Source: an uncultured delta proteobacterium (GTDB taxonomy: Bacteria > Myxococcota_A > Polyangia > Haliangiales > Haliangiaceae). From it: 64,000 nt of DNA. How positions within the stretch are numbered: the stretch's first letter is position 1; each line of letters begins with the position of its first letter. The stretch is from assembly GCA_963772655.1 (NCBI GenBank), contig CAVYYE010000009.1, positions 214,343 to 278,342 of the forward strand. The letters are read 5' to 3'. The notes below the pieces were generated by a model. The model ran no database searches. It had not been told where the DNA came from and saw only the letters and a program-made list of their open reading frames with translations. Positions 9,499 to 51,130 of the stretch are shown piece by piece. Position numbers and translations under genes: made by a program.

Positions 9499-10301
<803 letters not shown>

Positions 10302-10325
10302 AACCAAGTAGACTCCGAGGCTGGA

Positions 10326-12767
<2,442 letters not shown>

Positions 12768-18042: not shown

Positions 18043-19512
<1,470 letters not shown>

Positions 19513-27707: not shown

Positions 27708-29282
<1,575 letters not shown>

Positions 29283-47866: not shown

Positions 47867-49925
47867 TCAGGGCGCGGTCAGCGTGTAGCTGTTCTTCGCG
47901 CCGTTGTAGCCGAACACGCGGACGCTGCCGCCCGCGGGCACCGTGACCTCCTCGGAGTCGTTGGTGCTGGTGCTGCTGCCGACCTTGCTACCCGACGCGT
48001 CGTACGCCTCCAGGTCGAGGTCGCCGTTGCTGTGCGTGAACTCGATGCGCACCGTGCCGCCGGCCGCGCTCGAGAACCAGTCCTCGTCGGCCGCGCAGAT
48101 CCGCAGGTCGGTCACCGTGCCGCTCGCGGCGACGGCCGCGGCCTGGGTGTCGTTGGGCTCCTTCGCGTCGGTGCACTCCATGCCGGGCAACTCGAGCGAG
48201 CAGTACTCGGTCGACTCGGAGGGCTTCGTGGTGTCGGCGGCGACATCACGCTGCGCGCACACCTCGTCCTCCTGCCACGGCCGCCAGTCGGCACCGCGGC
48301 CGATCGACTCGGCGTACGACTGCCACAGCTGGTAGCCGTCGTCGCGCGACTCGAACACCACCGGCGCGATGCAGGTGTGGTTGGCCTCGGCGGCCGCCGA
48401 GATCCTTCTGGGCCTTGTCCATGATGATCGCGTACATCGCCGACGTGCTGGAGTTCCAGCAGCAGGTCTTGCTCTTGGTGTAGTCGAGCTCGGCGAACAC
48501 GTAGTCCTCGAGGTTGCGGTACTGCGCGTCGACATCACCCTTGCTCATGCCGAGCTCGCGCCCGACGTCGTACAGCTGGTGGAACGCCTGCTCGCGCCGC
48601 TCGCGCGCCGCGCACGACGCCGGGTACTGCGCCAGGTGGTGGCGCGCGTCGTCGATCTGCACGAGCAGCTCGTCGCGCTTCTGCTCCGGCGGCACCTGCC
48701 CCAGGAGCTGCTCGAATCGCGCGGGACGCGCCGCGATCCGGGCGTAGTCCGTCGAGTTGATCCAGCTCGCCTCGTCGGAGGCCATCCAGGTGTTGGTCCA
48801 GTAGCCGCCCACGTTCTTGGTCACGCGCCAGCGCTTGATGCCGCCGCCGAGCTTGGCGTACGGCGTGCCGTCCGAGGCCTCGCCCTCACCACCGGTGTAC
48901 GCGCTGGTGAAGTAGCTCTTCGACGACTGACCGCTCTGCTGCTTGCCCTGGCGGCGAGGCATCGAGCCCGAGATCGTGGTGACGTCCTTGCTGCCACCAT
49001 CGAGCTCGCGCACTTCCTTGACCACGATCGTGTGGCCGATGCCGTTCTTCTGCCAGCGCTCCAGCAACGTGTCTCCCGGGCGCACCGCGTCGGGGACGAT
49101 GTTGTACGTGTTCGCCGTGTCGGCGACGTTCATCGAGCCGAGGTAGGCCAGCGTCATCAGCGCGAAGTAGCCGACGCGCTTGTTGAGGAAGATCTCGTCG
49201 ACGTAGGCGCCGAACTGCGCGCCCGGGGCGATCATGTCCTGGTTGTCCTCGCCGCCCGCGAGGTGCTTGGCGCGCAGCTTGGCGTCGTGCGGCCACGACG
49301 TCTGCCAGTCGCTGTTCGACTCGTCGCGGTAGCGAACCCCGAACTCGGGCGAGTTGGCGTAGCGCCCCGACTGCGTGCGCACGCCGTTGTGGCTGAAGTA
49401 GACGCGATTGCCGTGCTCGTCCTGGGTCTCCCAGAACAGCGGCAGCTCGTACCACGACGCGAACGCGATCCGCAGGAACATCGCCATCTCGGCGCACTCG
49501 AGCCGGGGCGACGGCAGCGTCTTGCCCCACGGCGTGCTCAGCTCGAACGTCGTGGAGTAGCCATCGAGTGCCGGGATCCAGTTGAACGACTCGATCCACT
49601 TCGAGAACTTCTGGTCCCAGTTGAGGCCGCTGTCGGCGGGCCACGCCATGCCGGCCTTGCGCGCGGCCGGCGTGTCCGTGTCTTCCCACTTGTTCCGCGC
49701 AGTCCACACCTGGGTGCGCGTCGTGTCGGTGTTCACCAGCAAGCCACGACGGAGCTCGGAGTCCTCCTTGCCGGGAGGCGGCGTCGGTCCGAGTGGACCG
49801 TCCATGCCCCATTCGTCATCGAGTGCCGACTGGGAATCGGTCGCGCAGCCGATCGTTCCGATCGTGCAACACAGGAGACAAGCGAGGATGGCGAGCTTGC
49901 GCATGCGCGGATGCAAAGCATCCAT
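47867..49925 (-). CDS. Large lipoprotein with a C-terminal pre-peptidase (PPC)-like domain, interrupted by an apparent frameshift near 48395
   Basis: Lipobox LLCCTIGTIGC. Real-looking frame over 48400..49925, then continuation in the ORF 47867..48538 frame (…ISAAAEANHTCIAPVVFESRDDGYQLWQ…TVRIEFTHSNGDLDLEAYDASG…YTLTAP). Confidence 0.55.
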
Positions 49926-50225
49926 CGTGCCGGCCGGAGTGCCTGCAACCTCGGTGGGTTACGGGTGTGTTCGGTCTCCCGACCAGCCGACTAGCCAGGC
50001 CACCAGACCTAGCAGTCGAAGGGATCGCCGAGAGGAAGTGCACGGGGCCGCGCAAACCGCGAACCGCGCTGAACAACTGCGGTGCGCGGGAACAATGACG
50101 ACGAGGCGGGTGTGGCCCGGGGCCCAACCGGACCACACCCTCGATCGAGTCACCACATCTCGATCGATCTCGCCGAAGACGGTTGTCGGGCGCCGTCCGA
50201 AGACGGTGGCGGAGCGCCCGCGAGA

Positions 50226-50450
50226 CTAGCCCTGGACGATCGTCGCGCCGTTGGCCGACACCACGCTGGTGCCGCGCTTGCGGTTCATCGTCAGCATCAT
50301 CAGCGGCAGGAGCAGGTTGCTCTGATCGCTGTTCTTGCTGGTCGACAGGCTCGACAGCGAGTCCTTGATCGAGGTCAGCGACTGGGTGAGCTCGGTGTTC
50401 TTGCTGGCGCCGCCGGAGACGGTCGCGAGGGTGTCAACGTCGAGGTGCTT
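50226..50450 (-). CDS. Small protein (75 aa) with a double-glycine leader-like N-terminus (MKHLDVDTLATVSGG) and a Ser/Thr/Asn/Leu-rich core. Candidate orphan bacteriocin/RiPP-type precursor.
   Basis: Very strong GC3 codon bias supports translation. The leader matches the L(-12), L(-7), V(-4), GG(-2,-1) double-glycine consensus. Confidence 0.45.
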   Translation of the reverse strand, partial: KHLDVDTLATVSGGASKNTELTQSLTSIKDSLSSLSTSKNSDQSNLLLPLMMLTMNRKRGTSVVSANGATIVQG

Positions 50451-50575
50451 CATGCCTCGGAGGATGTGCAGCGCGCGTGCCGCGTTTGCCGCCAATGCGT
50501 TCGCGAACTTCGGCGAACACCCCAGTAAACCGCACCGAGCAGATCGAGTCCGCGAGAACGCGCTATACCCGACGC

Positions 50576-51130
50576 ATGGTCCGCCTCGCGGTACTGACCG
50601 CGCTCGCTGGTTGCTGGACGGGATCGGCCCCGCCGCCCGCACCGCCACCGGCACCGAGCCCCCCGCCCCGCCCCGTCCCGCACCTCGAGGTCAGCTACGC
50701 GCAGACCATGTGCCTCGGGCGCTGCCCGGCGTTCGAGCTGGTCATCCGGCGCGGCGGCCGGGTCGAGTGGAACGGCCGGCGGTTCGTGGCCGTGCAGGGC
50801 CGGCGCACGCGCCACATCTCGCGGCGCGACCTCGAGGCGCTCGATCGCGCGATCGAGCGCGCCCGGTTCTTCGAGCGCGACGAGTACGGCCACTTCCCGA
50901 TCAAGCCGACCTGCACGACGTCCGGCGGCACCACGACGTGCACGGTCCACAGCATCAACATCTGCACCGATACCTCGCACACGATCATCACGGTCGAGCG
51001 TGGCGGCCGGCGATGGCGCATCGACGACGCGCACTGCTCGAACGAGGACGACGACCTCCTCGCGCTCGAGAAGATGATCGTCGATCGCGCGGGGGTCGCC
51101 GACTTGATCGGCGGCGACATCGACTACTGA
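50576..51130 (+). CDS. Hypothetical lipoprotein
   Basis: MVRLAVLTALAGC lipobox followed by a Pro/Ala linker. Cys-containing globular domain. Confidence 0.55.
   Translation: MVRLAVLTALAGCWTGSAPPPAPPPAPSPPPRPVPHLEVSYAQTMCLGRCPAFELVIRRGGRVEWNGRRFVAVQGRRTRHISRRDLEALDRAIERARFFERDEYGHFPIKPTCTTSGGTTTCTVHSINICTDTSHTIITVERGGRRWRIDDAHCSNEDDDLLALEKMIVDRAGVADLIGGDIDY

Follow-up and report, generated by a model that had tools for sequence, protein, structure and literature searches.

An orphan gene for a double-glycine leader peptide in a myxobacterial genome belongs to a family with exporter-linked paralogues

Introduction

Is a 75-codon ORF with a double-glycine (GG) leader-like N-terminus, found in a 64-kb stretch of myxobacterial DNA (the window in the following, that is, the whole stretch that was analysed), an orphan precursor whose transporter is encoded at another site, or is it an unrelated small protein? 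A preliminary description of this DNA had offered both readings. We favour the first, since the GG motif is kept, paralogues are linked to an exporter of the PCAT type, and promoter and 3' RNA are common to orphans and exporter locus. The unannotated ORF thus becomes a member of a sizeable peptide family with a testable predicted export route.

Results

The precursor gene, its leader and the predicted mature peptide

The gene and its two parts are located as follows:

50226..50453, minus strand: precursor gene of 75 codons, ATG at 50453..50451, stop codon TAG at 50228..50226, full-length product 7.85 kDa
50409..50453, minus strand: 15-aa double-glycine leader MKHLDVDTLATVSGG, predicted cleavage after G15
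50229..50408, minus strand: predicted 60-aa mature peptide, Ala16-Gly75, 6.33 kDa (6,327 Da), pI about 10

The 75-codon ORF is a real gene. Its GC1/GC2/GC3 values reach 0.49/0.45/0.97, the window as a whole having 68.8% GC, and the measured third-position value bears out the figure of more than 90% given before. The only other frame with a GC3 of 0.97 is the antisense frame, which has its third positions in common with the ORF and is interrupted by stop codons. As an in-frame upstream extension to the GTG at 50654 shows a GC3 of merely 0.735, the translation start is placed at 50453; the span 50226-50450 proposed earlier gave the peptide sequence exactly but ended 3 nt short and missed the ATG. 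An orthologue (P0002) is encoded on a 2.6-kb soil contig (L001) and is 84% identical with the same neighbouring genes. Both genes differ in 11 synonymous and 12 non-synonymous codons, which is compatible with moderate purifying selection. A k-mer/indexed homologue search with the window peptide returned nothing beyond the identical protein and P0002, and hmmsearch in all six frames detected no second family member in the 64-kb window.

The leader carries L4, L9, V12, G14 and G15 at positions -12, -7, -4, -2 and -1, as the preliminary description had assigned them. In an alignment of 41 family sequences L9, V12, G14 and G15 (L-7, V-4, G-2 and G-1) are the only invariant columns, so the double-glycine leader goes beyond chance. 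All homologues retain the GG leader, and on this point the earlier reading stands. In the AF2 model, leader residues 6-12 form a short helix, with low confidence.

The mature peptide starts with a Ser/Thr-rich amphipathic helix, followed by an Asn/Ser linker, a conserved hydrophobic segment NLLLPxMMxxMNR and the tail SVVSAxGATxV, the invariant core residues being taken from the short subtype described below. The AF2 model from the family alignment shows helices at 17-42 and 44-59 and a disordered tail, at a low-confidence pLDDT of 61. Cys is absent and Ser/Thr make up 19 of the 60 residues, matching the composition described earlier. With a GRAVY of -0.23 the peptide is mildly amphipathic and not hydrophobic overall, and the hydrophobic segment alone is too short for spanning a membrane. 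Pfam and NCBIfam assigned no family to the window peptide and returned solely a weak, sub-threshold ESAT-6-like match. The NCBIfam bacteriocin-type signal model TIGR01847 (cut-off 15.7 bits) did not match it at E<=10, in a search whose speed filters may drop short matches. The long-type relative P0062 scores 17.5 bits on TIGR01847, which is above the cut-off, and has a weak match to the lactobin/cerein model of class IIb.

An uncharacterised peptide family with two main subtypes

In order to place the peptide, an exhaustive HMMER search was run against 1.84 billion representatives, giving 44 proteins at E<=1e-3, and a profile search of a 90%-identity collection gave at least 360 clusters. All taxon-named hits of the family belong to Kofleriaceae or Myxococcales MAGs, which makes a Kofleriaceae-like myxobacterium the probable source of the window. 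Scans of GTDB species genomes found no relative. The family is uncharacterised: no Pfam or NCBIfam model describes its members, and a literature search found no description of it. Some members bear the source names 'bacteriocin' or 'bacteriocin-like', and the PGAP name 'bacteriocin' of a long-type member arose probably because this member passes TIGR01847.

The leader nearly always has 15 residues and follows the pattern M-x-x-[LI]-x4-L-x-x-V-x-G-G. After the leader all members have an amphipathic helix rich in Ser/Thr (..LTQSLTSIQSSIxxL..), then a linker with many Asn residues, a hydrophobic segment rich in Met (LLLPMMMMAMNRR) and a variable tail, and the sequences include low-complexity stretches of poly-Asn and poly-Met. 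Two subtypes were distinguished, a long one (86-91 aa, tail ..PTVVAA..GPVINISTRVRRW) and a short one (75-78 aa, tail SVVSAxGATVV or similar) to which the window peptide belongs. A further short type ends right after poly-Met (..MMMMMMMMKR; L058 1..402, plus strand, and L130 5781, plus strand). It is encoded on the opposite strand about 2 kb from the end of the exporter cluster described next, so that the family has several members outside the array.

Long-type paralogues are encoded with a PCAT exporter

The long-type paralogues lie in the same conserved locus in all five long contigs (L003, L005, L007, L011 and L013), which encodes:

PCAT, about 760 aa, Peptidase_C39 + ABC_membrane + ABC_tran
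Membrane-fusion protein (MFP), about 600-700 aa
Outer-membrane factor (OMF), OEP family, divergent
Secreted protein 1, 352 aa, Receptor-L/LRR-like domain (E=1e-10)
Secreted protein 2, 534 aa, weak hint of an OMP beta-barrel
Three to five small ORFs, all GG-leader peptides, at least four types in fixed order

The two conserved secreted proteins are encoded between the OMF and the peptide genes (L003 6250..8969, with equivalents in L005, L011 and L013). Among the peptide types are a Gly-rich family member, one with ..DLSQVWGG, a Q/M-rich one with ..VTGGRI.., the long type and sometimes a Gly-rich class-II-like peptide; the Gly-rich neighbour weakly touches the ComC model. The gene nrdR lies convergently at the end of the locus and is adjacent in five of five genomes. 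The PCATs retain the oxyanion Gln and the catalytic Cys (QQLEWTDCGAASL; Q31 and C37) as well as H111 (NHFVV) and the Asp of IVDP, a Q/C/H/D set that was checked and found intact in all five contigs. The Cys segment QQLEWTDCGAASL aligns with the Cys motif of LahT (6MPZ) and PCAT1 (4RY2).

In the cluster loci the peptide array is closed, directly before the 3' element described below, by a small p106-like ORF that starts with MYDIDAIEAINFEQLVT.. and has a C-terminal membrane anchor (L003 10770..11090; also L016, L023, L024, L078 and L109). In L109 this ORF has its own sigma-54 motif 12 nt ahead of the ATG. Its product may be an immunity protein and is confined to cluster loci, a tblastn search finding no homologue in the window.

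Short-type genes stand alone in different neighbourhoods

Short-type genes stand alone in every case examined, in at least six unrelated neighbourhoods, which include the following:

DUF6438 / peptide / lipoprotein: window, L001 and L134 (60%-identical, syntenic)
Aldo-keto reductase or other gene / peptide / different lipoprotein: L008 and L009
Divergent gene, N-terminus resembling PLP-dependent (cystathionine-lyase-type) enzymes: L062, L067, L084, L089 and L093
Divergent AMP-binding enzyme: L072, L073 and L136
Downstream of TamB: L135

No PCAT was found within 10 kb on either side of the L135 gene, within 5.8 kb upstream and 10 kb downstream of the L136 gene, or within 10 kb downstream of the L134 gene, which lies at the start of its contig. 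As stated before for the window, it holds no C39 exporter: tblastn with five cluster proteins found no PCAT, MFP or OMF homologue, and LSGGQ and GSGKST motifs are absent from all frames of the 64 kb. As for modification enzymes, likewise stated to be missing from the window, a Pfam scan of ten neighbouring ORFs found no RiPP enzyme. There is no immunity gene in the window either: the peptide gene is followed directly by the 3' element and then by the lipoprotein gene of the 671-aa type, with no small membrane ORF. Protein accessions showed no orphan and cluster in the same MAG.

The neighbours were considered as partners and rejected. The MMPL transporter, DUF6438 protein, alpha/beta hydrolase and phosphoesterase of the window are not conserved beside other short-type genes, and the downstream 671-aa-type lipoprotein, which has no Pfam family, is syntenic only in the window, L001 and L134 and differs at other orphan loci. 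Since GG-leader genes are thus scattered off their exporter in myxobacterial genomes, mining that depends on a neighbouring PCAT would miss them.

A sigma-54-type promoter links orphans and cluster

Upstream of the peptide gene the following features were found:

50467..50481, minus strand: sigma-54-type -24/-12 promoter GGCACGCGCGCTGCA, 13 nt before the ATG
50482..50575, minus strand: conserved upstream region, candidate enhancer-binding site, ending at the likely DUF6438 ATG
50499..50508: upstream palindrome GTTCGCGAAC
50525..50531: upstream motif GGTTTAC
50542..50551: upstream motif GGACTCGATC

The sigma-54 consensus is TGGCACG-N4-TTGCW. The window promoter (cGGCACG-CGCG-cTGCA, 50481..50467) has the -24 GG, the -12 GC and the canonical spacing of the sigma-54 pattern, and the window contains a single exact copy of the motif. 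The strict form GGCAC[AG]-N4-CTGCA was found ahead of 32-34 different GG-leader genes, including a p106-like ORF and comprising the long-type cluster gene and short-type orphans; all short-type genes examined carry it except the L008-L010 group, and the first cluster gene has the variant promoter TGGCACATCGCGTGCT. The strict motif usually lies 29-56 nt ahead of the ATG and is followed by an AAGGA ribosome-binding site. In the lineage of the window (window, L001, L002 and L134) this spacing is 12-13 nt, so that, given the usual distance from -12 to +1, a transcript with almost no 5' leader is predicted.

The divergent DUF6438 lipoprotein gene on the plus strand has its likely ATG at 50576. Between this ATG and the promoter (50482..50575) the window and L001 share long identical stretches, and conservation exceeds that of the coding sequence. 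Other loci have related blocks, conserved inverted repeats among them, at comparable distances (GGACTCGAT..GTTKAC and CGCGAAnT.CGCGA, in clusters GTCAAT-N5-ATTGAC), and these conserved blocks are candidate sites for an enhancer-binding protein. Two ORFs of the window carry GAFTGA, the motif of sigma-54 enhancer-binding proteins (about 18049..19497 and 27714..29282, both minus strand), which indicates that activators of this kind are in use in the organism. An FHA-sigma-54 activator is encoded 3 kb from an orphan peptide gene in L136. Sigma-54 control would tie secretion of the peptide to the enhancer-binding-protein networks of myxobacterial development and secondary metabolism.

A structured 3' RNA element follows the peptide genes

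Two structures were found 3' of the stop codon:

About 50188..50219, minus strand: GC-rich UUCG-loop hairpin directly 3' of the stop, in the MFE fold, lineage-specific
50095..50178, minus strand: 84-nt conserved three-way-junction element of the 3' UTR, 29 pairs (RNAalifold)
Stem P1 of the element: GGCGAG/CUCGUC
Stem P2: CGAUCGAG/CUCGAUCG, with an invariant GUGGUGA loop
Stem P3: GGGUGUGGUCCGG/CCGGGCCACACCC

The GC-rich hairpin noted previously does exist, but it is not the conserved 3' feature. Its sequence is not conserved in the 84%-identical L001 and it is absent in L134, where only 13 nt separate the stop codon from the 84-nt element; as a functional terminator it was rejected for these reasons. 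By contrast, the stretch 50095..50178 is nearly identical in L001, and the element follows every short-type gene examined, 12-47 nt beyond the stop, and in all cluster loci it also stands at the end of the array of small ORFs.

A covariance model built from ten copies found one strong copy in the window (103.6 bits, with antisense and background at 19 bits or less), an element in L005 that had not been part of the seed, and further copies in L134-L136. When metagenomes were scanned with a degenerate pattern taken from the element, at least 120 stretches were returned, and the model, applied to the first 80 of them, confirmed 36 copies in 30 loci. Upstream of the element these 30 loci show:

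Family peptide(s) in the same orientation: 21 loci
Tail-anchored ORF immediately before (four clearly p106-like, nrdR convergent in several): 6 loci
Almost no sequence available: 2 loci
Neither peptide nor tail-anchored ORF: 1 locus

As 27 of the 30 loci found by the pattern belong to the peptide system, the element is not dispersed genome-wide. In the 36-copy alignment 96.6% of the cells are paired, compared to 34-46% when the partners are slid, and 12 of the 29 pairs show compensatory double changes that are spread over all three stems. The frequent G-U pairs fit the peptide-sense strand only. An assignment of the element to nrdR was rejected because of this strand preference and because orphan loci lack nrdR. 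Rfam gave no match at E<=1 over positions 49800..50700.

Many copies carry a T-run after P1, and tandem arrangements of two or three copies about 15-150 nt apart occur (L008 3678..3859, L010, L023 403..764, L047 13390..13818, L070 218..522 and L092 2229..2777). Because of these T-runs and tandem copies, a combined terminator and 3' stabiliser is the most economical role, and the 84-nt RNA most likely acts as one or the other. The invariant GUGGUGA loop hints at a more specific role. In many long-type genes (e.g. in L005, L011, L015, L109 and L110) the spacer between Shine-Dalgarno sequence and AUG, GGAUCACCAC or GGAUCGCCAC, is complementary to this loop; GGAUCACC also matches the 3' tail of the 16S rRNA. 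Among 34 genes compared for pairing of loop and 5' UTR, ten pair perfectly over at least 6 nt and about eight more with G-U wobble. For the window such pairing was rejected, as the match is absent in its 5' end and in those of the short type.

The element shares with intrinsic terminators and REP-like stabilisers its GC-rich sequence, its location 12-47 nt past the stop, the T-runs and the tandem copies. It differs from them in the three-way junction, in a 7-nt loop that is invariant, in the compensatory changes found in each of the three stems, in having one strong copy per 64-kb window and in being tied to the peptide system. The conserved sigma-54 promoter module and the structured 3' RNA motif absent from Rfam go beyond the original finding. 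Together they are portable cis-markers that link the orphans to the cluster and can be used for finding further members.

Discussion

Comparison with known double-glycine leader peptides

The closest comparison is the class IIa microcin V (CvaC, exported by the PCAT CvaB, the MFP CvaA and TolC). Like CvaC, the window precursor is small and, in the predicted reading, unmodified. Its leader MKHLDVDTLATVSGG has the same length of 15 aa and the same pattern as the microcin V leader MRTLTLNELDSVSGG, and its paralogues are encoded with a tripartite exporter of PCAT, MFP and OMF. In contrast to microcin V the core shows no sequence similarity and neither an exporter nor an immunity gene is nearby; further differences are the sigma-54 promoter, the conserved and structured RNA at the 3' end, the Kofleriaceae-like myxobacterial host, and a paralogue cluster that is conserved, nrdR-adjacent and made up of four peptide types. 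With 75 aa the precursor falls within the size range of class II microcins (<~150 aa, N-terminal 15-18-aa signal ending in GG, GA or GS), whereas the adjoining PCAT and MFP expected of this class are lacking at the window gene and present for the long type in five of five loci. For class II microcins an excerpt of a published study gives the signal pattern M-[KEQI]-x-[IL]-x9-G-[GAS] (PMC12219008), and the window leader appears to fit this expression as approximately read from that excerpt. In view of the missing adjoining PCAT/MFP, immunity gene and core similarity, we regard the peptide as working like a class II microcin and not as a proven member of the class. Its core resembles no described bacteriocin.

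Bacteroidetocins are characterised in the same excerpt as peptides of less than 100 aa with a 15-aa double-glycine signal and a need for a nearby PCAT (PMC12219008). The window peptide is like these, and like further GG-leader peptides from Gram-negative bacteria that are not Enterobacteriaceae, in size, signal and, at the family level, dependence on a PCAT. It differs in its unrelated core and in phylum, and while bacteroidetocin genes lie near a PCAT, the window subtype is always unlinked. With Gram-positive class II bacteriocins and ComC-type pheromones it has the hydrophobic residues at -4, -7 and -12 and the GG at -2/-1 in common; unlike them, it matches none of the corresponding models, contains no GxxxG or YGNGV core motifs, and implies a Gram-negative tripartite exporter.

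A model for expression and export

We consider it likely that the gene encodes an orphan microcin-like precursor that is secreted unmodified by a PCAT system encoded at another locus and shares the regulation of that system. Transcription would start at the sigma-54 promoter and require an enhancer-binding activator, and since similar promoters precede the peptide genes of the PCAT locus in related genomes, the orphan would presumably be switched on together with that locus. The resulting mRNA would be nearly leaderless, with the 84-nt three-stem RNA as its 3' end. The 15-residue leader would fold into an amphipathic helix that is recognised by the C39 domain of the distant PCAT, and the peptidase would cut the precursor after Gly15. 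The cationic 60-residue product would then pass through PCAT, MFP and OMF to the outside. Cleavage, export and biological role are what we infer from the context of the family, and by analogy with class II microcins antagonism of competitors would be the default role of the mature peptide.

The PCAT locus is syntenic and nrdR-adjacent in all genomes seen, which counts against a variable bacteriocin island, and it looks more like a core function. Given this fixed-order cluster, the orphans without an immunity gene and the modest hydrophobicity, a role other than that of a bacteriocin has to be weighed. It is possible, though clearly not our first choice, that the same GG/PCAT route serves a conserved sigma-54-controlled regulon of secreted peptides acting as signals or as building blocks of cell surface or matrix, with the 3' RNA as a specific regulatory element rather than a plain terminator. 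The four peptide types in constant order beside nrdR in five of five genomes would suit such a regulon, as would the Receptor-L/LRR-like and the weakly OMP beta-barrel-like secreted proteins of the cluster, the long-type tails with their beta-signal-like end ..VINISTRVRRW/F, the low complexity of poly-Asn and poly-Met, and an invariant P2 loop with complementarity to many long-type 5' UTRs. Against it, the orphans have no linked receptor, kinase or assembly machinery, the tail-anchored p106-like ORF at the end of the cluster resembles a typical immunity protein, and the window subtype has no beta-signal-like tail.

A more far-reaching version, which we put forward as speculative, would make the orphan a module of a core-genome peptide regulon of Kofleriaceae-like myxobacteria, with signalling, surface or matrix functions and with the 3' element as a new class of functional RNA. 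Unrelated GG-leader peptides would here share the sigma-54 promoter, the activator site and one nrdR-adjacent PCAT/MFP/OMF exporter, and the 3' element would control the fate of the peptide mRNAs, e.g. by binding a protein or the ribosome or by 5'-3' pairing. The GUGGUGA loop is complementary to the 3' tail of the 16S rRNA as well as to the long-type 5' UTRs.

The preferred reading, secretion of an unmodified peptide, departs from the preliminary description in one respect, as the latter had labelled the leader class II bacteriocin/RiPP and the RiPP half of this label found no support: no modification enzyme lies near orphans or clusters. Lanthipeptides and other RiPPs likewise have GG leaders, and a core with about one Ser or Thr in three residues could be dehydrated, glycosylated or similarly modified by enzymes encoded elsewhere before GG cleavage. 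We regard such a RiPP precursor as unlikely, for the core has no Cys, the window gene shows neither a nearby modification enzyme nor a class-specific core motif, and such enzymes were likewise missing from the window, the five PCAT loci and the orphan loci examined. Least probable of all is an intracellular small protein in which the N-terminal ..V.GG is no signal for cleavage or export, since the exporter-free window, the overall hydrophilic composition and the helical hairpin suggested by the weak ESAT-6-like match are opposed by a family whose sole invariant residues, the L, V and GG of the leader, keep a constant distance from Met1 and whose paralogues are embedded in PCAT loci among unrelated GG-leader peptides.

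Additional observations on neighbouring genes

Beyond nrdR a radical-SAM gene lies near the cluster, the only one nearby, which resembles the QueE type as judged on its N-terminal sequence. In L005 the region that separates the last peptide gene from its next neighbour (10248..11105) has a repetitive translation (..PAFSQHPRSP.., on the other strand ..GCWENAG..) and is probably a tandem DNA repeat rather than a gene. L008 and L009 have the peptide gene, the 3' element and the downstream lipoprotein gene in common (98% identical) and differ in their upstream genes, as if a rearrangement had its breakpoint immediately 5' of the promoter region. In the window the lipoprotein gene downstream of the peptide (47867..49925, minus strand) is broken into two by a frameshift near 48382..48420: the L134 orthologue of 671 aa aligns with its residues 1-488 in frame -3 (81% identity) and with residues 501-671 in frame -1 (77%), so that this copy is either a pseudogene or the result of an assembly error.
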